Made by a program: the position numbers and the translations under genes. Under the pieces are notes generated by a model. It did no database searches. It was not told the origin of the DNA and was given only the letters and a program-made list of their open reading frames with translations. A stretch of 64,000 nt of DNA, taken from assembly GCA_020628165.1 (NCBI GenBank), contig JAHDFM010000019.1, positions 10,395 through 74,394 of the forward strand, read 5' to 3'. Shown here one piece after another: positions 2 to 37,369 of the stretch (its first letter is position 1; every line of letters starts with the position of its first letter). Source of the stretch: Bdellovibrionales bacterium (GTDB lineage: Bacteria > Bdellovibrionota > Bdellovibrionia > Bdellovibrionales > UBA1609).

Positions 2-3000
2 AATGGTGGCGAAGCTTGCTCCGTCGCCGGCCATGCCGGAATGTTTCGCTACAATTCAGGCAATATGGAGTTTTGTAATGGCAGTGCTTGGCAAACTCTG
101 GGAACAGGAACTGGTAGTGGCGATATTCTCGACGGTGGTAACACCGAAGCTGCTGATATCACTATTGGTACAAATGACAACTTTGATCTCAATTTTGAAA
201 CTAACGGTTCTACTCAATTGACTGTTGATACCTCTGGCAATGTTGGTATAGGAAATACTACCCCCGATCAATTATTACATATCGATAGTGGGGCGGCAGC
301 TACGAGTCAAATTCATATGGAGTCTAATTCAGGGGGCGCGAACAGCTATTTAAAATCTTGGTTTAATGGCACGGAGTATTCATTTTCAATTGGCTCAGGA
401 GCTTTACCAGAGATTCTTACCTTAGGTAATGGAACTGGTCATGTTGGCATTGGAACTCCTACTCCTTCTACACCATTGCATATAGATGCAAACTCGCCAG
501 GGTTATTAAGACTTGAGCGAGATACAACGACAGATAGTTTTGCTGCCATTCAACTTCACAATACGTCTTCTGGAGGAAGCCATAACTCAAGTTTTGGTTC
601 TAAAGCAGAAACAACATTATCTGACAGTTACACTTACATCTCTGGTGATGACACAAGTATACATCTTGCTGTCAGACGAGATGGTCATGTCGGTATTGGA
701 ACAACTTCACCACAGGCACAGCTACATGTACTTGATACGGGGACTGCGGGGACACCAGCAATTGATAGCACCACCGTAGGAGTGTTCCAACGTTCTGGGT
801 CTGCATCAAATCGATCGCGTGTTTCTGTGATTGCTGGCACTAGTGGGAGAGCGGAAATTACATTCGGTGATTCCAGTGATCCATTAGAAAGTGCGATCAG
901 TTATTCAAATACTGCAGACAGATTGCAGCTTGAGATTGCAGGTGCTCCAAGACTTTATATCGCCAACACAGGTCGCACTGGAGTTGGCGAACCAAGTCCT
1001 GACACCCTTTTGGATGTTGCAGGTACCATTAAGGTCGCCGATGGCGGTGAAACTTGCACTATCGCAGCCGATGCTGGGATGTTTCGTTACAACACAGGAA
1101 ATATGGAGTTTTGTAATGGCAGCTCGTGGCAAACTCTGAGTGTTGGTGGCGGAAGTGGTGACATTTTAAATGGCGGTAACACAGGCACAGTGACCATTGG
1201 TTCTAATACCAACAACGAACTGCGCTTTGAAACAGATAACACCGTTAGGATGCGAATGCTCGGCACTGGTGAAATTGGTATTGGTATTACAAATCCAACT
1301 GAAGCTTTACAAATAGGAGCAACGAGTAAGTTTAAGGTTGGTGGCTTGTCCGAGGGTCTTGAAATTGACAAAGACAGTAACTTCTCAAATCTTGTTTCTT
1401 TAGCAAATGGATTTTTATTTCAAATTGATCGTGTTGATGCAAGCTACAGTGATTTTGTATTTAATCATAACAACTCTGTCACTACAGATAATGAATTGAT
1501 GAGACTCACTGGTGACGGAAATCTAGGTATAGGTGTGATTAACCCTAATTCTACTTTAGACATTTTTAGTGCTTCACCAGGAACAAGCACAGACTACGTC
1601 GCTCAAATTGAAGCTTCCGATTATCAATTTGGAATCTCCAATGGCACAGACCTTTGGGGTTTCTCAAACTTTTCAGGAAATTTATACTTTCAACGCAATG
1701 GTGCAAATGCACTCACTTTGGCCGGGTCGGCGGCAGCTGGTTTTGGTGATACTGGGCCTGACGCTCACGTTGAGATCAGTGCCAACGGCACCTCGGGTGG
1801 CGCTGTACTAATGGTGAGTAGTAACGACGGTGGTGATGGTGATTTATTTATTGTCAATGAAGATGGTAACGTAGGAATTGGTATCGTTGGACCTGCAGCC
1901 CCCATTCATGTGAGTTCCACATCAGCTTCTGTTCTTGGTCAATTTGACTCCTCTCTTAATGCAGCTCTCTTAGACATAAACACAAGCAATGGCACTCCAA
2001 ACCGATCAGGAGTTCGCTTCCTCAACGCTGGCACCGTTGCAGGTCAATTTCATTATGATCACGCCGATTCAAGGCTTGAATTATTTAGTGGAGGTTCCGG
2101 GGCTGGTGATCGTAAAATGGTGATTTTAAATTCTGGGAATATCGGTATTGGTAATGACTCTCCAAACTCTACTCTTGATATTGATGGTGACTTCAATATG
2201 CTTGAAATGTCGTCCGCACCGACAGTTTCTGCTGCAGATGAAGGACGTATTTACTTTGATGCTACTGCCAATAAGTTTAAGGTTTCTGAAAACGGTGGAG
2301 CTTTTGTTGATTTAGTTCCAACATCTGGTGCAGGGGCTGGTGATATAATTGATGGTGGTAATTCTGAAGGGGCTGCAGTTACCATTGGTACCAACGACAA
2401 CTTTGATCTCAACTTGGAAGCCAATGGCTCTACTGTCATGACTATTGAAAATGATGGAGACGTCGGTATTGGCCTCACTTCACCAGCAAAGAAATTACAT
2501 GTCTTTGAAGCCGTAGGAGGCGATACCCTTTCAAGATTACAAGTAGGTGATTCTCTTGGTGTCTACCAAGGCTTCCAAAACAGTGCACAGACATGGGTTA
2601 TAGGTATTAACTCAAATGAAGATTTTATTATAAGAGATTCAACCAATGCCAGCGCTATTCCTTTTGAAATTGAAAATGGCGCCCCCGAAGGATCTCTCTT
2701 TGTAGACAGCACTGGTAATGTTGGTGTTGGAACATCCAACCCTTCAAGCATTTTAGATATAGTGAGTGAAGGGACCACTGATGTTAATTACACTATGTAC
2801 TCATCAGCTGCAGCTTTAACAGCTCCTGACTTTGTTTTAAAAAGAGCTCGTAACACCAAAGCTGCTCCGCAAGCCGTGCTTGATAATGACAAGTTAGGAG
2901 GAGTCCGTGGTGAAGGTTATGATGGTTCTGACTTTGGGAACTATACGGGAGTTTTCTTTTTTGCTGATGGCAATTTCTCACCAGGAGATACACCCACTCG

Positions 3001-3922
3001 CATTGAGTTTGATACTATGCCCGATGGCACTTCAACGGCTCAAACACGCATGACTATAAAAAATAGTGGAAACATTGGTATCGGAGAAACAAGCCCTGAT
3101 GAGTTATTACATATTAGCGCTCCTTCATCGGGAACACATTTGAAACTCGAAACACTAAATTCCGCAGGTTCTTTTATCAGATATCAAAATTCTGCCCATG
3201 AGTGGTCAGCAGGTATTAACTCCGCAGAAAACTATGTTATTCGTGACCAAACCAACTCTCAAAATGAAATTGTTGAAATTGAAAATGGTGCTCCTGCGGG
3301 AACATTTAGAATTGATAGTTCAGGTGATGTCGGAATTGGTACAACCTCCCCGGCCTCTCAACTTCATGTCGATGCCACTGGTGCGGGCGGCGGTGTTTGT
3401 GTTACATCAGACGGAACTTGCAGTGCTGTTCCGAACGGGGGTGAAATTTCAGCTGAAACCACCCTCAACACTGGTGCCGACTATGCGGAATACTTTGAAG
3501 CTGAAGAATCTATCGAAAAAGGAGAACTCGTTGCACTTAACCCTAAAACTGGTTTAGCCAGACGATTCCAAGTTGGAGATCAACTCATTGGAGTGGTTTC
3601 TACCAACCCAGGTGTAATTGGTAACTCAGAACTCAAAAACTCTGACAGGGCTGTACTAGTGGCTTTAGTTGGGCAAGTGCCAGTTGTTGATGCACAAATT
3701 TATGATAAAGATGGATATGTCTATACTAAAAGTGGTGAAGGTATTGGTTACCGTTTAGCCAACAATAATGTATATCTGAATATAAGCACCGGCACTCAGT
3801 CGTTGCAAAGAAAAATTAACTCTTTGCAAACAGAACTTAAAAAATTAAATAATAAGTACTACCAAGACATCATAAGCGTTAAAGGTCGTCTTGATGTTAT
3901 TGAAAAGCAACTTACAAAATAA
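2..3922 (+). CDS. Large trimeric fibre/adhesin (phage tail-fibre-like) with C-terminal Peptidase_G2-like intramolecular chaperone; 5' truncated by window
   Basis: Frame is open from base 2 (NGGEACSVAGHAGMFRYN...). Many G(N/D)(V/I)GIG repeats and duplicated modules. C-terminal GADYAEYF...IGVVSTNPGVIGN...VALVGQVPV followed by a coiled coil. Confidence 0.8.
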   Translation, partial: NGGEACSVAGHAGMFRYNSGNMEFCNGSAWQTLGTGTGSGDILDGGNTEAADITIGTNDNFDLNFETNGSTQLTVDTSGNVGIGNTTPDQLLHIDSGAAATSQIHMESNSGGANSYLKSWFNGTEYSFSIGSGALPEILTLGNGTGHVGIGTPTPSTPLHIDANSPGLLRLERDTTTDSFAAIQLHNTSSGGSHNSSFGSKAETTLSDSYTYISGDDTSIHLAVRRDGHVGIGTTSPQAQLHVLDTGTAGTPAIDSTTVGVFQRSGSASNRSRVSVIAGTSGRAEITFGDSSDPLESAISYSNTADRLQLEIAGAPRLYIANTGRTGVGEPSPDTLLDVAGTIKVADGGETCTIAADAGMFRYNTGNMEFCNGSSWQTLSVGGGSGDILNGGNTGTVTIGSNTNNELRFETDNTVRMRMLGTGEIGIGITNPTEALQIGATSKFKVGGLSEGLEIDKDSNFSNLVSLANGFLFQIDRVDASYSDFVFNHNNSVTTDNELMRLTGDGNLGIGVINPNSTLDIFSASPGTSTDYVAQIEASDYQFGISNGTDLWGFSNFSGNLYFQRNGANALTLAGSAAAGFGDTGPDAHVEISANGTSGGAVLMVSSNDGGDGDLFIVNEDGNVGIGIVGPAAPIHVSSTSASVLGQFDSSLNAALLDINTSNGTPNRSGVRFLNAGTVAGQFHYDHADSRLELFSGGSGAGDRKMVILNSGNIGIGNDSPNSTLDIDGDFNMLEMSSAPTVSAADEGRIYFDATANKFKVSENGGAFVDLVPTSGAGAGDIIDGGNSEGAAVTIGTNDNFDLNLEANGSTVMTIENDGDVGIGLTSPAKKLHVFEAVGGDTLSRLQVGDSLGVYQGFQNSAQTWVIGINSNEDFIIRDSTNASAIPFEIENGAPEGSLFVDSTGNVGVGTSNPSSILDIVSEGTTDVNYTMYSSAAALTAPDFVLKRARNTKAAPQAVLDNDKLGGVRGEGYDGSDFGNYTGVFFFADGNFSPGDTPTRIEFDTMPDGTSTAQTRMTIKNSGNIGIGETSPDELLHISAPSSGTHLKLETLNSAGSFIRYQNSAHEWSAGINSAENYVIRDQTNSQNEIVEIENGAPAGTFRIDSSGDVGIGTTSPASQLHVDATGAGGGVCVTSDGTCSAVPNGGEISAETTLNTGADYAEYFEAEESIEKGELVALNPKTGLARRFQVGDQLIGVVSTNPGVIGNSELKNSDRAVLVALVGQVPVVDAQIYDKDGYVYTKSGEGIGYRLANNNVYLNISTGTQSLQRKINSLQTELKKLNNKYYQDIISVKGRLDVIEKQLTK

Positions 3923-4063
3923 ATCTGATTTTGTGAACACAGATTTTAACTCTACTCTTTTCTGCAAAAGGATTTGATTAACTGATTTTTTTTAGGTTAT
4001 CGTTTTTGTGCAAATCTTTTTGCAGAACTGATTCCTCATTCCAATTAAGCAATGAAGAATCAG
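3921..4063. repeat. Three adjacent inverted repeats between convergent genes; probable terminator region
   Basis: Arms 3921-3927/3940-3946, 3960-3976/4011-4027 and 4028-4040/4051-4063. Confidence 0.6.
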
Positions 4064-4905: not shown

Positions 4906-5829
4906 TTAAGCGTGAGCTTGATCATCGAGCCACCTTTCAGCGTCGATGGCAGCCATACAGCCTGTTCCCGCAGCAGTGACTGCTTGCCTGTAAACATGGT
5001 CTTGAGCATCTCCACAAGCAAAAACACCTTCAACGTTGGTGTAGGTGCAATCTGGCTTTGTATTAATGTAACCGACATCGTTAGTTTCAATAAAGTCTGT
5101 GAAAATATCAGTGTTCGGTTTGTGACCAATGGCTATGAAAACACCCTCTAAATTCATTTCAATGGTTTCATTGGTTTTATTATTAAAGACCTTTACACCC
5201 GTGACGGCTTTATCACCCAACACATCTTTAAGTTCTGTGTTCCAATGAATTTGAATTTTTTCGTGATTCATCACACGGTCCGCCATCACCTTGGAAGCTC
5301 TAAACGATTCACGGCGGTGAAACACATGCACTTTACTGGCAAAGCGAGTTAAGAACAAAGCTTCTTCCATGGCCGTGTCACCACCACCGACGATGCAAAC
5401 TTCTACGTCTCTAAAAAAAGCACCATCACAAGTGGCACAAGCAGAAACCCCGCGCCCTAGTAAGCGTCTTTCATTTTCTAAGCCTAGGTACTTCGCCGAA
5501 GCTCCAGTAGAAATAATGATAGATTTTGACTGATACTCTTTGTCTTTCACCCAAACTTTAAAAGGGCGTGATGAGAAATCAACTTTTGTGACGTTATTAG
5601 AAATAAAACGTGTGCCAAAGCGTTCGGCTTGCTTTCGTGTGATCGTCATTAAGTCAGGCCCCATAACACCCTCAGGAAAACCTGGGAAGTTCTCAACATC
5701 AGTGGTGGTCATGAGCTGTCCACCTACCTCTTCACCTTCAATCATTAATGGATTTAAATTTGCTCTTGCTGCGTAAATAGCAGCAGTTAAACCGGCAGGC
5801 CCAGAACCAATGATGATCACATTTTCCAT
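4906..5829 (-). CDS. trxB: Thioredoxin reductase
   Basis: GSGPAG, GGQLMTTTDVENFPGFP, CATCDG, GGGDTAMEEA, YRQAVTAAGTGC. Confidence 0.97.
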   Translation of the reverse strand: MENVIIIGSGPAGLTAAIYAARANLNPLMIEGEEVGGQLMTTTDVENFPGFPEGVMGPDLMTITRKQAERFGTRFISNNVTKVDFSSRPFKVWVKDKEYQSKSIIISTGASAKYLGLENERRLLGRGVSACATCDGAFFRDVEVCIVGGGDTAMEEALFLTRFASKVHVFHRRESFRASKVMADRVMNHEKIQIHWNTELKDVLGDKAVTGVKVFNNKTNETIEMNLEGVFIAIGHKPNTDIFTDFIETNDVGYINTKPDCTYTNVEGVFACGDAQDHVYRQAVTAAGTGCMAAIDAERWLDDQAHA

Positions 5830-5892
5830 AGTTTTTCCTCTGATAGAATTAAGTCAAATTTCACAGACAAATTAACAAAATATCAGTGTGAA

Positions 5893-6549
5893 TTAAAGTT
5901 CTTTTACTTCGAGCTGATAATGACGAGCACCATCATGGCTTTGTGACCATTTTATAAAAGTTTCAGCAACACAAGCGGGGTCGTCGACCACTTTGCTGTT
6001 ATATACCTTGGCTTTTTTGGGCAACAATGGAGTGCTCATATAACTTGGGCTGAACAAACGCAGATCAAAGGGCACACCTTCTAGCTGAACGGTTTTGATC
6101 AACCCAGCTAAACCATGCTTGGCAGAACTGTAACTAGCTGCGTTTGGATCGGGCAAAGCCTCAGCGACACTTGAGCCAGTAAAAATTAATTGCTCAAGCT
6201 CTAAGTTTTGCATGGCAAAATGTAAGAGCTTTGCTGGAAATAGCAAGTTCAATTGGTAGGCCCATAAGTGATCTTTATACTCTTTTTTTGCAAACGGACC
6301 GAAGGGCCCACCTCCAGAAAAATAATAAATGTGTGTCGGCCCAAATAGTTTTAAGTTTTGTAAAAAAACTGCGTGTGTACTTTCTTTGGTGGCATCAAAC
6401 TTTTGTGTAGTGACTTGGCCCCCTACAACTGACAGTGCAGCCTTAGGGCTTCTTGAACACACTAAAATTTCACTGGCATCCGTTGCAATTTTTTTGAGAA
6501 CTTCAAAACCCAAACCTTTTGCACCACCAATGAGGACATACTTTTTCAT
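5893..6549 (-). CDS. Short-chain dehydrogenase/reductase
   Basis: N-terminal GGAKGLG and YSSAK (YxxxK). Confidence 0.8.
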   Translation of the reverse strand: MKKYVLIGGAKGLGFEVLKKIATDASEILVCSRSPKAALSVVGGQVTTQKFDATKESTHAVFLQNLKLFGPTHIYYFSGGGPFGPFAKKEYKDHLWAYQLNLLFPAKLLHFAMQNLELEQLIFTGSSVAEALPDPNAASYSSAKHGLAGLIKTVQLEGVPFDLRLFSPSYMSTPLLPKKAKVYNSKVVDDPACVAETFIKWSQSHDGARHYQLEVKEL

Positions 6550-29826: not shown

Positions 29827-30155
29827 AACCTTATCCTTTAGTTAGATTTTTTATAGATAAACACACCACTAACGCTTAGTGTTGCTGGGCCTCAGATAAC
29901 ATGTTATAAGTGGTTAATTTTTTCAAGGTTTTTGAATTTTTAAATCTATTTTTATAAACTCATTTTGCAACGCAAAATGGATAATCTCGTGACCTTAAAA
30001 ACTTCGATAAGTTATTAAAATATATCTACTTTAACTAAACCCACAAGCATATTAACACGTTTTTCGATAAGACCTCTTTATAACTGTTATAATTTTTATA
30101 AACCTTGAAAGGAAAATCCTAGTCGATAAAGCACCTTCCCTGTAGTTTATTTGCA

Positions 30156-30746
30156 ATGAAAGCAATAATAGAAATGCCACGAAAACTCTATGAATGGACG
30201 ATCAAATGGGCCTCTCACCCTAAAGGAGTGATTGCCTATGTTATCATCTCGTTCATTGAGTCTATATTTTTCCCCATTCCAGTTGATCCACTAGTGATGG
30301 CACTTTGTTTGTCTAATTATAAAAAGTCACTTTATTATGCTTTTATTGGTTGCGTGGCCTCTGTGCTCGGCGGAATCGTCGGTTATTACCTTGGTTATGG
30401 AGCCGAATCTTTTGTGATGAGCTCTCTTGGCGATAATGATTTTATTCAAAAAGCCACTGCCATGTTTCAAGAGAACACTTTCAATGCCATGTTCATCGCA
30501 GGCTTTACCTTTCTTCCTTTTAAAGTCTTCGCTATTTCGGCTGGCCTCTCGCAAGTTCCACTCATTCCATTTATATTAGGTTCGCTGGCCGGTCGAGGTC
30601 TACGTTTTTTCTTGGTAGGAGGCCTTATCTATTTTTATGGCCCGCCGATTAAGTCTTTCATCGACAAATACTTAGAAAAAATATTTTTAGCCATTGTTAT
30701 TATATGTGTCGTAGCTTACGTCGCTTTAAAGCTCTTAAAAGGATAA
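30156..30746 (+). CDS. YqaA/DedA (VTT domain) membrane protein
   Basis: ESIFFPIPVD, FLPFKVF, GRGLRFF. Confidence 0.9.
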   Translation: MKAIIEMPRKLYEWTIKWASHPKGVIAYVIISFIESIFFPIPVDPLVMALCLSNYKKSLYYAFIGCVASVLGGIVGYYLGYGAESFVMSSLGDNDFIQKATAMFQENTFNAMFIAGFTFLPFKVFAISAGLSQVPLIPFILGSLAGRGLRFFLVGGLIYFYGPPIKSFIDKYLEKIFLAIVIICVVAYVALKLLKG

Positions 30747-30750
30747 CTGC

Positions 30751-31737
30751 ATGTCCGAAGCTCTCTTTGGTTTATCTACTAAATATGAAGATGCTCACAT
30801 TGTTGTTATTCCTGTTCCATGGGAGGTCACAACCTCATATGGGTCTGGTGCCTCACTAGGACCTGAAGCTATTTTAAAAGCTAGCCCACAACTTGATCTT
30901 TATTCTTACGATAAAGACAATAAAATTAAAAAATCTCCGATTTTTTTTCTAAGCATCGACAAGACTTTAAAAAATAAAAACTTAGAAATGAAAAAACTCT
31001 CACAAGACATCATTGCCACACTCGATAAAGGTGAGTCTTTAAGCCCTCAACAGCATAACAACTTAAACGCTATTAATGGCGAGAGTGAAAGTGTAAACAC
31101 TTATGTTTATACTCAAGCTCAGAAAATTATGGAAGATGGAAAAACTCCAGTTGTTGTTGGTGGCGATCATTCCTCTCCATATGGACTCATTAAATTGCTG
31201 AGTGAAAAACAGGAAGCCTATGAAATACTACACATTGATGCTCATTTAGATTTGCGTGATTCATATCAAGGGTTTAAACACTCGCATGCCTCTATTATGA
31301 AAAATGTTCTTGGCCTTAACAACCCACCCAAAAACATAACCTCAATTGGTATTCGAGATTTTTGCGAAGAAGAAATGAACATCGTTAAGTCAAACAAACT
31401 CAACTGCCTCACCGATTTTGAGCTCGCAAACCAACTCTTTGCTGGTAAAAGTTTTCAAGCCTGCATTCAAGAGCACTTAAGTGTTATAAAACATCCGGTT
31501 TATATCTCATTCGATATTGATGGTTTGAGCCCTGATTTTTGTCCCAACACGGGCACACCTGTTGCCGGTGGTTTGAGTTTTAACCAAGCTCTCTTTGTTT
31601 TAAACTGGGTTAAACAGCATCACAAAGTCATTGGCTTTGACCTTTGTGAAGTTTCTCCTAGCCCCGACCTTAACGATGAGTGGGACGGCAATGTGGGAGC
31701 TCGCATTTTGTTTAACTTGTGCAGCACTTTGTTTTAA
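30751..31737 (+). CDS. speB: Agmatinase (ureohydrolase)
   Basis: GGDHS, DAHLD, SHAS, SFDIDG, TGTP. Confidence 0.85.
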   Translation: MSEALFGLSTKYEDAHIVVIPVPWEVTTSYGSGASLGPEAILKASPQLDLYSYDKDNKIKKSPIFFLSIDKTLKNKNLEMKKLSQDIIATLDKGESLSPQQHNNLNAINGESESVNTYVYTQAQKIMEDGKTPVVVGGDHSSPYGLIKLLSEKQEAYEILHIDAHLDLRDSYQGFKHSHASIMKNVLGLNNPPKNITSIGIRDFCEEEMNIVKSNKLNCLTDFELANQLFAGKSFQACIQEHLSVIKHPVYISFDIDGLSPDFCPNTGTPVAGGLSFNQALFVLNWVKQHHKVIGFDLCEVSPSPDLNDEWDGNVGARILFNLCSTLF

Positions 31738-31820
31738 CTGCAACTCATTTTTTTGTTGAGTGCATAAGTTTTTTCTCTCTACTTTTGCTATAGGGTTTGG
31801 TGATCAAAACTTCTTCAGCA

Positions 31821-31946
31821 TTAAATCCTCATCTCAACAACTCTTTACTCGTACTCAAACAGCCATGGGCAGCACCGCTCGCCACTGGCGAGCACCGCAC
31901 CCACGGAACTCCGTGCGAGCAAAGTGTTGTTGAGATGAGGATTTAA
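31821..31946. repeat. 126-bp nested palindromic element (MITE-like or structured RNA)
   Basis: Perfect 21-bp arms TTAAATCCTCATCTCAACAAC and a GC-rich inner hairpin GCTCGCCACTGGCGAGC. Confidence 0.8.
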
Positions 31947-32197
31947 AATTGAAAATTTTTTTGGGTTTCTTAACTTTGACGTTGTTCTGGTTTGGTTTGG
32001 TTTCGCTGCTTATTTGGCGCTAATGCTCATTGTGTACTTTTTATACATAAGTCATTAACCTTAACTAACTTATAAAATAATTGTGTTTCATTTTTATGAT
32101 TTAACTTGTTTATGATTTTTTTATTTTTAAGTTCAAGAAAAGCAATGTAGCTCTACTTTTTTGATATGCCAACTAAAAATTATATTTATGTATTTCT

Positions 32198-33571
32198 TTA
32201 TCGGCTTAAGAAAGTTTCATCTAGTAGACCGTTTTCTAAAAACTCTAGTAGGTCGTCTTTTTGTTCTTGTGTGAGGTTGAGGCCCTCTTTGTATATGTTT
32301 AATGGGACGCGGCTCAGCTTGTCTTCCATCCTGGCTGCGTTTTTATCTGTAATCAATTCTAGTTCGTAATGTTTCCTAAAACTTTGTGGAATTTCGTAAT
32401 TTAAATTTCCTTCGCGAATATTGTTTTTAAATTCGATAACATCCCTCAATGTCTCGAAAGCACCATTATGCATGTAGGGAGCTGACAGCTTTACGTTGCG
32501 TAAGCCTGGAACTTTGAACTTGTACTTATCGCTATCGTTATTTGTCACTTGCTCTCTACCCGTGTCGTTTATAAATGGTTTGAAACCTAAAAATGGCGTT
32601 GCGATATTTTCAAAGCTCTCTCTGGTGAACATTGTTCCCGTATGGCAGAATTGACATTGTCCGACGCCGTAAAAAACCTTCATGCCTTGTTTTTGTTGTT
32701 CGTTCATTGCCGTTAAATCACCATTTAAATAACGATCAAATGGAGTGTCGTTGGCTAAGAACTGAGTTTTGAAAAAAGCTTTTATAGCTCTTGCAATATG
32801 ACCTGGGTGAATTTCATCAAGAGGTGTGTTCGGAAAAGCATTTCTAAAAAACAACTGGTAATTACTTTGCGATAGAACTCGTTCGTTTAATACTTTGTCC
32901 CAAATAGCAGCATGGTTTTCTTTGCCCAGATTTGCAATCTCATTGTCAAAACCTAAGAACTCTACCGGTGTTATGATTGGAAACAATGGCTGTATTCCAG
33001 GACCAGTCTCCATCAGTTCTGGAATGTCTGGACGAAATGGTGAGGTGCCCGAAATTTCTGGAGCCGGTGTTTGCACCACACCAGGCGACACTAATTCAAT
33101 GCGACCATCCCACAGAGCAAACTTTTGCCCCTTTAAACCTTTGTTGAATAATGCAGGAGCATGTCTAGGCATAGGCTCACTTTTACCATTGATTTGTTTT
33201 CTATTGGGAAACTCACCCTCTCCGCCAGTTCCAATAGGAAGAGGTAAGCCGTCACCTGTTCCGGCCTCATTGAAGTGGCAAGTTGCACACGACGTGTCTT
33301 TGTCACCGCTCAGTAAAGTTTCATTAAAAAGTGCTTCACCTAAAATAATAAGAGCTTCATCTTCTTCTTCAACATTAGGAAATGGCGTTAACTTGTTTTG
33401 ACTGATAATAACTTGCAACTCACTGTCTATAGGTGAAATCTGTAATAACTGACTTGAGTTTCCAGCTGTATCTAATAAGTCAAATTGTCCGCAGTTAGTA
33501 AAGTTAAACGCAACAAACAGCAAACCAAAGATGATACCAACTAATGCAATGTATCTCACCATCATACTCAT
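32198..33571 (-). CDS. Diheme cytochrome c peroxidase/MauG-family lipoprotein, copy B
   Basis: CATCH, CQFCH, LWDGR, FKVPGLRNV, APYMHNG; FTNC signal. Confidence 0.9.
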   Translation of the reverse strand: MSMMVRYIALVGIIFGLLFVAFNFTNCGQFDLLDTAGNSSQLLQISPIDSELQVIISQNKLTPFPNVEEEDEALIILGEALFNETLLSGDKDTSCATCHFNEAGTGDGLPLPIGTGGEGEFPNRKQINGKSEPMPRHAPALFNKGLKGQKFALWDGRIELVSPGVVQTPAPEISGTSPFRPDIPELMETGPGIQPLFPIITPVEFLGFDNEIANLGKENHAAIWDKVLNERVLSQSNYQLFFRNAFPNTPLDEIHPGHIARAIKAFFKTQFLANDTPFDRYLNGDLTAMNEQQKQGMKVFYGVGQCQFCHTGTMFTRESFENIATPFLGFKPFINDTGREQVTNNDSDKYKFKVPGLRNVKLSAPYMHNGAFETLRDVIEFKNNIREGNLNYEIPQSFRKHYELELITDKNAARMEDKLSRVPLNIYKEGLNLTQEQKDDLLEFLENGLLDETFLSR

Positions 33572-33577
33572 ACTTAC

Positions 33578-34912
33578 CTATCTATTTTTAAAGGTTTCAT
33601 CCAACAATCCATTTTCTAAGAAGTCGACTAAATTTTGTTGTTCCTCTGGTCTTAAATTAATTCCTGCTTTTAATCGTGGATCACTCACTTGATCGATACG
33701 TTCTTGGTTGCGAGCACTGTCGTTGTCAAAAATTAAAGTCAACTCATAGTGTTGCTGAAAACTTGGTGGAATAGTGTAATTGTTAATGCTACTTTCTACG
33801 TTACTGTAATGTGAGATAACACTCTCTAAAGTATCAAAAGCACCATTGTGCATATAAGGAGCCGACAACTTTACATTTCTTAAACCTGGAGTTTTAAAGT
33901 GGTATCTATCAGCAGGGTTGCCCGTGTCATCTTCACGACCGCGATCATCTTGAAAAGGCGCAAACGTTAACTGCGGAACAGCAATGCCCTCAAAGTCATT
34001 ATTAGTGAAAGTATTGCCTGTGTGACAAACGTTGCAAGCGCCGTTGGTATAGAAAGTTCGCATTCCCAATTTTTGATTTTCTGTAAGTGCGTGGATATCA
34101 CCGGCGATGTACTTATCAAAAGGTGAATTGTTAGCTACAAATGTTGTCCTAGTGTAGGCACGGATCGCCCTGGAAATATGACCAGGATTTAAGTTATTAG
34201 TAGCAACATTTGGATAAGCTTGACTAAACAAGGTCACATATTTGGTCTGAGTTAATAACCTTTGAAAAAGAACTGTGTCCCATATCACTGATGGGTTGCC
34301 AAGATTAGCTAAAGGATTGTTAACCCCTAAGAATTCAGTTCGGTTAATTATTGGAAACAGTGGCTGAATATCAAAAGCGTTCTCAAACATGCTGGTAATG
34401 TCAGACCGTTGCGGATTGGGGCCGGAAAGAATCGCTAGAGGTGTACTTGGGACACCATTAATTAAATTCAAACGTCCGTCCCACAAAGCGTGAGTCCTTC
34501 CATCTCGGCCCGTATTGAACAAAGCCATCGAGTGGCGACGCATTGGTAAAACCCCGGCGACCTGTCTTCGATTAGGAAAGGTGCCCGTTGTTCCAGAACC
34601 CAACGACAATGGCAAACCATCACCACTTCCAAGGTTAGGACTGTGACAAGAGGCGCAAGATACATCATTCAATCCACTCATACTTGTATCAAAAAATAAT
34701 TCCTTTCCCAGCGCAACAAGTTGTGGACTTTCTGCAGAGGGAGACTCCAAGGGAACAAGATCATTTGCCGCGATAATTAAATCTAATTGCTTGTCCAAGT
34801 CCGACTTAACACTTGTGACAAAACGACGACTGCTTCGGCCACAGTTTGTAAATGTAAAAGCAAGTAAGCTGATGCCAGTTATTAATACAATGAATGGAAA
34901 TAACTTTTTCAT
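33578..34912 (-). CDS. Diheme cytochrome c peroxidase/MauG-family lipoprotein, copy A
   Basis: CASCH, CNVCH, LWDGR, FKTPGLRNV, APYMHNG; FTNC signal. Confidence 0.9.
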   Translation of the reverse strand: MKKLFPFIVLITGISLLAFTFTNCGRSSRRFVTSVKSDLDKQLDLIIAANDLVPLESPSAESPQLVALGKELFFDTSMSGLNDVSCASCHSPNLGSGDGLPLSLGSGTTGTFPNRRQVAGVLPMRRHSMALFNTGRDGRTHALWDGRLNLINGVPSTPLAILSGPNPQRSDITSMFENAFDIQPLFPIINRTEFLGVNNPLANLGNPSVIWDTVLFQRLLTQTKYVTLFSQAYPNVATNNLNPGHISRAIRAYTRTTFVANNSPFDKYIAGDIHALTENQKLGMRTFYTNGACNVCHTGNTFTNNDFEGIAVPQLTFAPFQDDRGREDDTGNPADRYHFKTPGLRNVKLSAPYMHNGAFDTLESVISHYSNVESSINNYTIPPSFQQHYELTLIFDNDSARNQERIDQVSDPRLKAGINLRPEEQQNLVDFLENGLLDETFKNR

Positions 34913-35286
34913 AGATGTCCCCTATCTTCATTATAAAATCGGAAAAAACCCTTTAATAGTTTAGCTTTAATTGAACAATTCCTCGACTTTTGATGGGCCA
35001 TTGTGTTTCATATCGAGACGAATTTTAAAGTGGCGAAAGAAAAAAGGTGATCGCGAGCAGAATCATTACCGTTGCAATGACTTATCCCAGCAAAATGATC
35101 TCATCAGAACTAATGACCTTTTCATTCAAAGTTCATAAAAATGTTCAAAGACAAACGCATATATCTATGTCAAATAAAAGACTGTGCGCCTCCAACTTTA
35201 ATAACTAAATAAAATATTTAAATATGAGTACCTGGATGAACATTTTTGATGTTTAGAAAAAAATTAATTTGTGTTAAATATTTATT

Positions 35287-35712
35287 ATGGATTCTTGGTA
35301 TAAAAATGGATTAAAATTTGAATGTCAGGGTTCAGGAAAATGCTGCACCTCTCATGGTGAGTATGGCTATGTTTACCTTACAAATAAAGACATAAAAAAA
35401 GCCAGTCAGTTTTTAAACTTAACTGTGAAAAAATTTATAAATGAATACTGTGAACTTGATCACGACAGTGAAAGTTACTTTTTAAATCAAGGCTCTGACA
35501 AAGATTGTCTTTTTCTTCAAAACAAGAAATGCAGTATTTATACTGCAAGGCCAATGCAGTGTAAGACATGGCCTTTTTGGCCAGAAACAATGAACGCTAA
35601 AACATGGAAAAAAGAAGTGGCCAACTTTTGCCCTGGCATAAACAAAGGGCGCCTATATAGCGCCCAAGAGATCGATAATATTGTTAATGAGCAATTGCTC
35701 AGTGAGATTTAA
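35287..35712 (+). CDS. YkgJ-family cysteine cluster protein
   Basis: CQGSGKCC, CLFL, CSIYTARPMQCKTWPFW, CPG. Confidence 0.9.
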   Translation: MDSWYKNGLKFECQGSGKCCTSHGEYGYVYLTNKDIKKASQFLNLTVKKFINEYCELDHDSESYFLNQGSDKDCLFLQNKKCSIYTARPMQCKTWPFWPETMNAKTWKKEVANFCPGINKGRLYSAQEIDNIVNEQLLSEI

Positions 35713-35743
35713 AAAAGCGTAGTTATCATCCTGATAAAAACGC
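35711..35743 (-). terminator. Probable intrinsic terminator of dksA
   Basis: Imperfect hairpin GCGT..TTATCA/TGATAA..ACGC followed by a T6 tract on the minus strand. Confidence 0.5.
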
Positions 35744-35758
35744 CCCCAAACACAAATT

Positions 35759-36130
35759 TTAGCGCGCGTAACGCTTACCCATACTTTCTCTAATTTCAGC
35801 ACCTTCTATGCTTAGGCGTGTCCACGGGATGGCCAGTAAGCGCTCATTTTCGATAAGCTCTTCTGTTTCTTCGCACACACCATAGGTGCCTGATTCAATT
35901 CTGGCTAAAGCCATTTCAATTTCAACAAGTTGTTTTCTAAAACGCTCGTTAAGACGCAAAAATTGGCTCTCTTCCAAGGCTCTAACCGTGAGGTCACCCT
36001 CATCGCCACCTTTATTGTCTTCTCTGTTGAAGTTCTCTCTCGCCTCTTTGATGCGGTTCAGTATATCTTCTTTGGATAGCAATAGCTTCTGTTTGCATTT
36101 TTCGACCAAGTCTTTTGGTAGTGTAGACAT
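35759..36130 (-). CDS. dksA: DksA/TraR family transcription factor
   Basis: Coiled coil with DEGD tip, ALARIESGTYGVCEET, RLLAIPW. Confidence 0.85.
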   Translation of the reverse strand: MSTLPKDLVEKCKQKLLLSKEDILNRIKEARENFNREDNKGGDEGDLTVRALEESQFLRLNERFRKQLVEIEMALARIESGTYGVCEETEELIENERLLAIPWTRLSIEGAEIRESMGKRYAR

Positions 36131-36421
36131 AATTCCCTCCCTGTCGTTCCGTTAGCAACTTGTTAGTGCCAAAGTGGAACTGAACTATTTACACACTGAC
36201 CAGGTAATTTTTGCAAGAACTTTTTCTTAAAAACCCTTAATGTGCTTAAATATACTACATTAGTCTGGTTCAACCGATTGGACGAAAGTAAAGCCCATAG
36301 GGATTTTCAAAAACTTAAATTATCTAAAATTATATTATCTGTATGCGTCACGTTGCGACAATTAAAAACATTCTACACTCCCTTAAAATGATTATCTCAA
36401 AAAAATAAGTTACCTTCGGCT

Positions 36422-37369
36422 ATGACATTAATTACTGCGCTATTATTACTATTATTAGGTTTTGTATTACTTGTTTTTGGTGGAGACTTACTTGTTAAGG
36501 GCGCCATTGGCCTTGCGGAGAAGCTAAATGTCTCCCCATTAATAATTGGCTTAACAATTGTAGCCGCTGGCACATCAGCCCCAGAAATTATCACTAGCTT
36601 CATGGCATCTATGAAAGGCAATCCTGACATTGCCATTGGCAACATCGTCGGCTCGAACCTTTTTAATATGTTAGGTATCTTAGGTGTTACTTCATTATTA
36701 ACAGTGAACATCATTAGTAAAACCATTATCAAATCTGAATTTGTACTGTTGGTCTTTTTTACTTTGGCTTTTATGGGACTCACCTGGGACCAGCAAGTAA
36801 CGATGACTGACTCTTCAATTTTTATAGCCTTGTTGGTTGGGTTTATTTTATTCACCATCTACAGAGCCAAAAAATATAAGTTACAACCTGTCGACGAAGA
36901 AGAACTTGAAAGTTACTCAAACTTTAAAGTCACCTTACTCGCACTCATTGGAGGCTTTGTTTTATTAATAGTTGGTTCTGAATTTGCTCTTCGAGCAGGG
37001 ATTCGCCTTGGGCAAATAGCTGGCCTCTCAGACAGAATTATTGGGCTTACCATCATATCGGTTGGAACTGGTTTACCAGAACTTGCCGCCTCAGCAATGG
37101 CTGCTCTTCGCAAACAAGGAGATCTAGCTTTTTCTAATATTATTGGGTCAAACATTATTAATACCCTGGGCATTCCTGCCACTGCAGGCTTATTTGCTAC
37201 GGCGCAAATTGATGCCTCTATTGTACAATTTGACTCACCTATTTTGCTTATATCTACTTTACTGATCTTCCCACTAGCTTACATTTGTAAATTTAGGTTT
37301 TCTAAAGTGAGTGGGCTCATACTCACCATTGCTTATTCAAGTTATATTGCTTATTTGTGTTTTAATTAA
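36422..37369 (+). CDS. Calcium/sodium antiporter (YrbG-like)
   Basis: Alpha repeats GTSAPE/GNIVGSN and GTGLPE/NIIGSN. Confidence 0.92.
   Translation: MTLITALLLLLLGFVLLVFGGDLLVKGAIGLAEKLNVSPLIIGLTIVAAGTSAPEIITSFMASMKGNPDIAIGNIVGSNLFNMLGILGVTSLLTVNIISKTIIKSEFVLLVFFTLAFMGLTWDQQVTMTDSSIFIALLVGFILFTIYRAKKYKLQPVDEEELESYSNFKVTLLALIGGFVLLIVGSEFALRAGIRLGQIAGLSDRIIGLTIISVGTGLPELAASAMAALRKQGDLAFSNIIGSNIINTLGIPATAGLFATAQIDASIVQFDSPILLISTLLIFPLAYICKFRFSKVSGLILTIAYSSYIAYLCFN

Follow-up and report, generated by a model that had tools for sequence, protein, structure and literature searches.

In the bacterial cytochrome c peroxidase (bCcP)/MauG superfamily, the chemistry is considered to depend on which residue serves as distal ligand of the second heme: according to PMC11892367, methionine goes with electron entry and peroxide detoxification, and tyrosine goes with bis-Fe(IV) long-range protein oxidation. 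A 64,000-nucleotide (nt) stretch of the Bdellovibrionales contig JAHDFM010000019.1 (the window, to which all position numbers below refer) raises the question of what follows when this position holds lysine. Two adjacent genes in the window, A and B, encode MauG-like diheme c-type proteins, with tyrosine at the ligand column in A and lysine in B. With moderate confidence, we favor the reading that a MauG-type enzyme was duplicated and that its second copy would have a His/Lys electron-transfer heme and perform peroxide chemistry without bis-Fe(IV).

Tyrosine and lysine at the second-heme ligand column of a tandem pair

The gene pair, predicted from its open reading frames (ORFs), and the two codons at the ligand column of heme 2 (the electron-transfer or E heme) are as follows.

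33578..34912, minus strand: gene A, encoding a MauG-like diheme c-type protein of 444 aa, probably a lipoprotein, with Tyr at the ligand column of the E heme (ORF, PF03150)
32198..33571, minus strand: gene B, encoding a paralog of 457 aa, probably also a lipoprotein, with Lys at that column (ORF, PF03150)
33572..33577, minus strand: A-B spacer of 6 nt, TAG-gtaagt-ATG (stop of A to start of B)
33806..33808, minus strand: codon TAC of A, Tyr369, aligned with P. aeruginosa CcP Met275 and MauG Tyr294
32426..32428, minus strand: codon AAA of B, Lys382, in the same alignment column as A Tyr369

The two ORFs lie head-to-tail, both on the minus strand, and their products share 48% identity over 454 columns (E 2e-153). 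Each protein has two CxxCH motifs together with LWDGR and PYMHNG, and both match PF03150 (CCP_MauG) above its cut-off of 25.6, A with 106.6 bits (E 2.4e-30) and B with 90.1 bits (E 2.9e-25). By this match, the two CxxCH motifs, the shared fold, and the Trp and Gln/Pro/Glu residues described below, A and B are members of the bCcP/MauG superfamily. From the 6-nt spacing we infer that they are likely read as one transcript with translational coupling. A preliminary description of this DNA had reported two co-oriented paralogs 6 nt apart with these motifs, and no MADH or MbnP gene adjacent to them; the ORFs, their junction and the neighboring genes confirm this layout, and the positions that it gave for the Tyr and Lys codons are exact. 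It had also placed the axial ligand of heme 2 at the position 14 residues after the His of MHNG (+14), and the alignments bear out that this is the ligand column.

In phmmer alignments to P. aeruginosa CcP (1eb7), Lys382 of B and Tyr369 of A both fall under the 'm' of 'aimgn', which is chain residue 275 when counted from the aligned ranges (B 234-388 on 128-281; A 217-371 on 124-277). Counting along the same alignment yields His55, His71, Asn79 and Trp94, in agreement with the numbering of this enzyme. The ranges aligned to MauG (3l4m; B 238-385 on 132-297; A 248-374 on 157-299) put both residues at chain residue 294, a placement derived from the ranges and assuming that the last 3-5 columns are ungapped. 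Tyr294 is named as the MauG ligand in the BthA paper (PMC6405878). At the column of the canonical His/Met E heme, neither A nor B has Met; A (Y369) has the Tyr of MauG-type enzymes and B (K382) does not.

AlphaFold2 (AF2) models of both proteins are confident (mean predicted local distance difference test score 93.7 for B and 94.6 for A), and they place Lys382 and Tyr369 at the next-to-last residue of an equivalent helix (B 375-383, A 362-370). From the alignment and this helix position, Lys382 is the probable ligand of the heme-2 iron in B. An extended lysine reaches about as far from its C-alpha as the tyrosine hydroxyl does, so a change from Tyr to Lys would need little backbone change. One residue earlier, at +13, B has Phe where the other proteins of its Lys group have His, and a +13 His therefore cannot replace Lys as the ligand in B.

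Lysine is kept in the clade of B and recurs in other lineages

The preliminary description had raised the concern that the lysine might be private to this genome, with Tyr in its orthologs. A homolog search returned 1159 proteins at E <= 1e-20, and we examined the best 120 of these. A regular expression found the motif in 110, in which the +14 residue is Tyr in 94, His in 12 and Lys in 4; the motif-less proteins (10/120) were read in a MAFFT alignment where they were among the first 61, and those falling within it have Tyr or His at the ligand column. Those with Lys are B itself and the three relatives nearest to it (about 50% identity), so that Lys occupies the column in 4/4 of the clade of B and the concern does not hold.

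When the first 31 of these 120 proteins were placed in a maximum-likelihood tree, the Lys proteins came out as one group (support 97/93), sister to a Tyr group that contains A (99/97), with both nested among Tyr proteins. When the Y-type copy of a second genome of the same genus (G002) was added, the Lys clade was again monophyletic (98.1/97). A single Tyr-to-Lys change would be the simplest reading, and the TAC to AAA change in the clade of B amounts to two nucleotide steps. Lys and Tyr rows differ at only 9 alignment columns, one of which is position 382, and the alignment contains no clade-specific new Tyr, Met, His or Cys in the Lys group. Lysine at this column is probably a real natural variant, conserved in related bacteria.

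Outside this clade, a wider sample of 160 further loci (80 metagenomic, 80 genomic) gave 142 motif matches, with Tyr in 114, His in 23, Gln in 4 and Lys in a single one, L132, from an Anaerolineae metagenome-assembled genome (MAG). A search of representative proteins returned 11,637 at E <= 0.001, 445 of them at E <= 1e-30. Among the best 150 of the 11,637, 148 were new; 11 of these lack the motif and 137 contain 138 motif matches, which read Tyr in 81, His in 51, Met in 3, Lys in 2 (P0162, 'RHK'; P0175, 'RQK') and Glu in 1. Lys thus occurs at the ligand column in three unrelated lineages besides the clade of B (L132, P0162 and P0175): it is rare, at about 1-2% of this long MauG-like branch, yet recurrent, and the ligand column is a natural tuning point. 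Codons in the His-rich group, CAA/CAG for Gln and AAG for Lys, fit single-step His-Gln-Lys paths. The preliminary framing of Met against Tyr with a unique Lys was right about the position of the lysine and too narrow about the family: judged from these predicted proteins, one branch has His commonly and Gln, Lys, Met and Glu rarely at the column, which shows that a Met/Tyr dichotomy understates natural diversity.

Some details of this column may be recorded here. Among L048, L084, L085, L090 and L055, Gln appears as 'HQ' at 4 loci and 'QH' is found at one; Met ('HM', 3 representatives) and Glu ('HE', 1) occur among P0181, P0232, P0244 and P0259. Roughly one in three of the representatives examined (best 150 of 11,637) has His at the column.

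Placement among known diheme enzymes

In VIA-align comparisons, the B model is nearest to a canonical bCcP (N. gonorrhoeae, 6fu3; Z 31.3, root-mean-square deviation (rmsd) 2.0, 297 residues aligned) and to MauG (3l4m; Z 31.0, rmsd 2.6, 305 aligned), followed by MbnH (6e1c; Z 29.8), BthA (6nx0; Z 26.7), hydrazine synthase gamma (Z 14.6), RoxA (Z 8.5) and TsdA (Z 5.0 over about 100 residues); the Foldseek ranking is consistent with this order. Canonical bCcPs (1eb7, 6fu3) are the best matches of A and B by both fold and sequence (phmmer E about 1e-25 to 1e-28), but their heme 2 is His/Met, where A and B have Tyr and Lys. With MauG from Paracoccus denitrificans, both proteins have in common the diheme fold, the inter-heme Trp and the pocket Gln/Pro/Glu, and at the Tyr294 column A has Tyr and B has Lys. 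They are unlike MauG in having no MADH gene nearby, a lipoprotein-type N-terminus and, after heme 1, an insertion of roughly 40 residues.

MbnH is, like A and B, a MauG-type superfamily member, and PMC11892367 lists it among the His-Tyr, bis-Fe(IV)-forming enzymes, but the window has no MbnP gene adjacent to the pair. BthA (Burkholderia thailandensis) is an orphan MauG-like enzyme with a Tyr/His heme 2 and no known substrate. Its paralog BthB makes BthA/BthB a pair comparable to A/B, but, according to PMC6405878, both members are Tyr types and their genes lie on different chromosomes. BthA also differs from A and B in the inter-heme Trp, which they have and which BthA is described as lacking, along with the Ca2+ site, in PMC6405878 and PMC11892367.

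The top NCBIfam model for both proteins is TIGR03981 (His-Xaa-Ser-system MauG-like), at 223.7 bits for A and 217.4 for B, under its cut-off of 340. The MauG equivalog TIGR03791 (A 121.1, B 103.3 bits) and the MbnH model TIGR04039 (A 143.2, B 133.7 bits) fall far under their cut-offs of 443.85 and 362.85. In the genome that contains the window, which is 99% complete, the MbnP-like model TIGR04052 had no match, HxsB (TIGR03978) had generic radical-SAM matches only (<=30 bits against a cut-off of 370), and the MADH light chain (PF02975) had no match, a result that the control genomes likewise gave. Because the equivalog scores are under their cut-offs and the partner genes were not found, we regard A and B as orphans within a MauG-like branch of long proteins (400-500 aa).

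Two further observations concern this family. The same genome has a third PF03150 gene (contig C18, L001:1273-2427, 384 aa), which is of the Tyr type ('EFY') at the ligand column, and a Pfam search of the 99%-complete genome found no Met-type canonical cytochrome c peroxidase. Fused relatives of 690-1136 aa (L116, L117, L120, L126, L036, P0125, P0157, P0170 and P0195) have a large N- or C-terminal extension.

Precedents for a nitrogen ligand come from two directions. Hydrazine synthase gamma and RoxA are superfamily members in which heme 2 has neither Met nor Tyr, the ligand being His and not Lys; for the gamma-II heme of hydrazine synthase, bis-His ligation is given in PMC12607021. By analogy, these two show that N-donor ligation is compatible with the superfamily fold. 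AvTsdA, the thiosulfate dehydrogenase of Allochromatium vinosum, is a natural diheme cytochrome c whose oxidised electron-transfer heme is His/Lys, according to PMC5146829. TsdA is unrelated to B in overall fold and family, and its Lys swaps with an adjacent Met upon reduction, whereas B has no Met beside K382.

Active-site residues and a proposed mechanism

The heme-binding and pocket motifs lie at the following positions, with coordinates computed from the ORF start.

34643..34657, minus strand: A heme-1 (peroxidatic) motif CASCH, residues 86-90
34022..34036, minus strand: A heme-2 (electron-transfer) motif CNVCH, residues 293-297
33275..33289, minus strand: B heme-1 motif CATCH, residues 95-99
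32642..32656, minus strand: B heme-2 motif CQFCH, residues 306-310
34472..34486, minus strand: A LWDGR, residues 143-147, with inter-heme Trp144
33101..33115, minus strand: B LWDGR, residues 153-157, with inter-heme Trp154 aligned to P. aeruginosa CcP Trp94
34331..34336, minus strand: A Glu193-Phe194 ('EF')
32957..32962, minus strand: B Glu204-Phe205 ('EF'), catalytic-pocket Glu retained and the adjoining Met replaced by Phe

We compared these residues in a 74-row alignment selected from the 120 proteins, leaving out the fused P0032, P0038 and P0044 as well as the greater part of P0068-P0120, which are short and near-redundant. In B numbering, Glu204 is present in 74/74 rows, Gln194 in 70/74, Pro198 in 69/74 and Trp154 in 60/74, and all four are present in A and B. 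The preliminary description had remarked on 'EF' where the family usually reads 'EM'; the column indeed has M in 66 and F in 8 of the 74 rows, the 8 being exactly P0001-P0008. In the 1eb7 alignment, His71, the loop His that closes heme 1 in P. aeruginosa CcP, falls on a gap or Thr in A and B. Because the pocket residues are kept and the loop His is absent, peroxide activation at heme 1 is expected in both proteins. The Ca2+-binding Asn79 of P. aeruginosa CcP corresponds to His in A (residue 127, ~34532-34534) and in B (residue 137, ~33161-33163); the column has His in 21/74 relatives and Asn in 51/74. Some members of the long MauG-like branch may therefore have a changed Ca2+ site; BthA has one too, though changed in another way.

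The N-termini of A and B consist of a hydrophobic helix followed by F-T-N-C, which is invariant in 9/9 clade members. This arrangement suggests that both are lipoproteins; the Asn at position -1 of the putative lipobox Cys is atypical for lipoproteins.

In the scheme that we propose, both proteins are diheme c-type enzymes located in the periplasm, probably with a lipid anchor, and belong to the long MauG-like branch. The two genes would have arisen when one was duplicated in a single genus of predatory Bacteriovoracaceae, and would be read as one operon. In both, heme 1 would activate peroxide and the Trp would couple the two hemes. A, which keeps the His/Tyr heme 2 of MauG, MbnH and BthA, would form bis-Fe(IV) and oxidize a docked substrate at a distance. 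In the lineage of B, Tyr would have changed to Lys once, Lys then being kept in all known clade members, and heme 2 of B would most likely be low-spin His/Lys(amine). As a neutral N-donor cannot stabilise Fe(IV) in the way that tyrosinate does, B is expected to be without bis-Fe(IV) stabilisation.

Comparisons within the superfamily give this scheme its terms. PMC11892367 sets His-Met, the canonical arrangement with a high-potential E heme, beside His-Tyr, the MauG-type arrangement with Fe(IV)Fe(IV)=O. According to PMC6405878, the Y463H variant of BthA loses the near-infrared bis-Fe(IV) feature and keeps H2O2 reduction, and the same loss of the bis-Fe(IV) feature is reported for MauG Y294H. 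B is expected to behave like these Tyr-to-His variants, with peroxide turned over via compound-I-like or radical species at heme 1 and heme 2 acting as a low-potential electron relay. Function would then be split between A as a long-range oxidant and B as a differently tuned peroxidase or oxidase.

Does Lys382 bind the heme-2 iron?

Several points weigh against a His/Lys heme in a duplicated enzyme. Lys-Fe ligation is read from alignment and helix position rather than from an N-zeta to Fe distance. To bind iron, the lysine has to be deprotonated; otherwise, it would be off the iron, and heme 2 would be five-coordinate or water-bound. Relatives have Gln and Glu at the ligand column, and non-ligating residues may be tolerated there. 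The Y-type copy of G002 branches outside the Lys clade and the other Tyr proteins (98.7/98), and a history of one duplication followed by Tyr to Lys is not cleanly recovered. The branch leading to B measures 0.62-0.69, against 0.16-0.29 for the other Lys proteins, and could reflect relaxed constraint. Finally, a conserved partner or substrate gene was not found among the neighbors of 15 related loci.

Of the alternatives, the one that survives best has Lys382 off the iron, with heme 2 of B five-coordinate, water-bound or bound by some other residue, and so forming a second open heme or a rearranged site. The normal protonation of Lys at periplasmic pH speaks for it, as do the relatives with Gln (4 matches) or Glu (1), which are poor or unusual heme ligands, at the same column; the branch may tolerate a heme 2 that has no ligand there or a different one. 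Against it, Lys is kept in all four clade members despite about 50% divergence and arose independently three further times, in L132, P0162 and P0175. No clade-specific alternative ligand emerges from the alignment, and Lys can extend to a similar distance as Tyr. We consider this alternative possible and rather unlikely, and retain His/Lys ligation as the preferred reading.

The tandem arrangement and a possible joint function of A and B

To see how far the pairing extends, we surveyed 41 genomes (that of the window and 40 relatives), 16 of which had a match. Two adjacent full-length copies occur in 2/41 only, the genome of the window and G002; the Tyr/Lys tandem for which the preliminary description had proposed a search is thus present in a second genome. 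The order in G002, on one strand, is an agmatinase-family gene, a Y-type gene ('EHY'), a K-type gene ('DHK') and a CxxCxxCC gene. In the window, the Tyr-Lys cassette (32198-34912) lies between the same flanking genes, inverted relative to G002 and opposite in orientation to both flanks. Inverted repeats matching at both cassette borders were not found, only a weak 19-nt pair. In G001 (64% complete), a Y-type gene stops 92 nt before the contig end, and a second copy could lie beyond it; in G003, of the same genus, a Y-type gene lies directly upstream of the CxxCxxCC gene, and a K-type gene was not found. Elsewhere, only 1/160 further loci (L053) has side-by-side diheme genes, both Tyr types, and Lys-type L132 has no second diheme gene within roughly 4 kb flanks. 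For the Lys-type proteins P0002 and P0003, the contigs of origin were not found among the metagenome contigs scanned, where the best match had 41% identity.

The preliminary description had gone on to suggest a heterodimer or an enzyme-substrate system. This was pure inference, and the tandem is confined to 2 genomes of one genus; a two-component oxidative system in which A joins B as a heterodimer, or in which one is the enzyme and the other its substrate (or reductant), seems to us improbable. The 6-nt spacing here and the Y-type-upstream, K-type-downstream order in two genomes fit such a pair, and canonical bCcPs are homodimers. Adjacency, however, is the default outcome of tandem duplication for fresh paralogs, the Y-type gene of G003 stands beside the CxxCxxCC gene with no K-type gene found there, and L132 is a K-type gene on its own in its flanks. 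A complex predicted from A (40-444), B (47-457) and four hemes received a score of 0.00, where the mark is 0.32; this result argues neither for nor against binding.

We are just as doubtful that A and B act one after the other on a small molecule, such as a lipid or other prey-derived compound. The idea has a documented precedent in tandem CcP-family paralogs, P. aeruginosa PA2077/PA2078, whose sequential dioxygenase and diol-synthase roles make up an oleate-diol synthase according to PMC4496055. Two negative results, the absence of a protein-substrate gene from the neighborhood and of a Met-type bCcP from the genome search, point the same way. Yet A and B are much nearer to bCcP/MauG (Z 31) than to the RoxA-like fold on which PA2077/78 were modelled (Z 8.5), they keep the peroxidase pocket Glu, Gln and Pro, and they offer no substrate clue. 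Last, that B is a decaying or non-catalytic copy is very unlikely: it has the longest branch of its clade and alone lost the +13 His, but its reading frame is unbroken, it retains PYMHNG, both CxxCH motifs and the Trp, Gln, Pro and Glu residues, its AF2 fold is confident, and its orthologs are conserved in four sources. The preferred reading stays that of a duplicated enzyme with a His/Lys second copy.

Gene neighborhood

The neighbors of A and B encode an agmatinase, a DedA/VTT protein, a CxxCxxCC protein and DksA; neither a MADH nor an MbnP gene adjoins the pair. Among 27 neighbors of 15 related loci, Pfam revealed no recurrent partner gene apart from an arginase-family gene, which adjoins the diheme gene in G000 (the genome of the window), G001, G002 and L113. 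At the window locus, this gene is an agmatinase by TIGR01230 (197.7 bits against 174.3). Inspection of its product by eye showed no signal peptide; the product looks cytoplasmic, and the gene is probably only syntenic. None of the small ORFs in the intergenic DNA on either side is a convincing candidate for a precursor peptide, the interval 30000-37000 has no Rfam or tRNA matches, and promoter and terminator scans did not rise above shuffled expectation. A search of sequencing runs returned three DNA entries, all from a single study, and no RNA.

Between the convergent agmatinase gene and gene B, at 31790-31975, lies a long palindromic element whose two 49-nt arms show 82% complementarity. Its RNA form has a folding energy of -77.7 kcal/mol (z = -10 relative to shuffled sequences), and it has no Rfam match. 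Because its core recurs in ~20 copies over the contigs of the genome, at 81-93% identity, we class it as a dispersed repeat resembling repetitive extragenic palindromes or miniature inverted-repeat transposable elements (REP/MITE-like).

Two related loci have neighborhoods of other kinds. In L106, from a Halobacteriovoraceae MAG, a Tyr-type gene is flanked by imelysin (Peptidase_M75) and MauE-family genes (2560-3816 and 5266-6102), a context not seen at the window locus. In L007, from the same-order genome G034, a His-type ('EHH') homolog adjoins a Cys/Tyr-rich ORF (3006-3977) with a long terminal PPTSTR repeat run and a masked stretch inside.

Implications for the family

A literature search, which did not extend to subscription-journal papers on MauG Tyr294 variants, turned up no bCcP/MauG protein with a Lys ligand and no publication joining Bacteriovorax with cytochrome c peroxidase. 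The family, the fold and the heme chemistry are already known; what appears to be undescribed is the pairing of a Tyr paralog with a copy that has a selected lysine in its place. At the far end of what the locus might mean, and with little likelihood in our estimate, His/Lys would be a further natural bCcP/MauG class beside His/Met, His/Tyr and His/His, and in this genus the Lys enzyme and its Tyr paralog would form a two-component system, for example with the Lys enzyme as a dedicated redox partner charging or resetting the bis-Fe(IV) enzyme on the predator cell surface. A Lys copy beside a Tyr paralog of 48% identity is a ready-made matched pair in one putative operon, and such a pair could show how the axial ligand tunes high-valent heme chemistry without engineered mutants.

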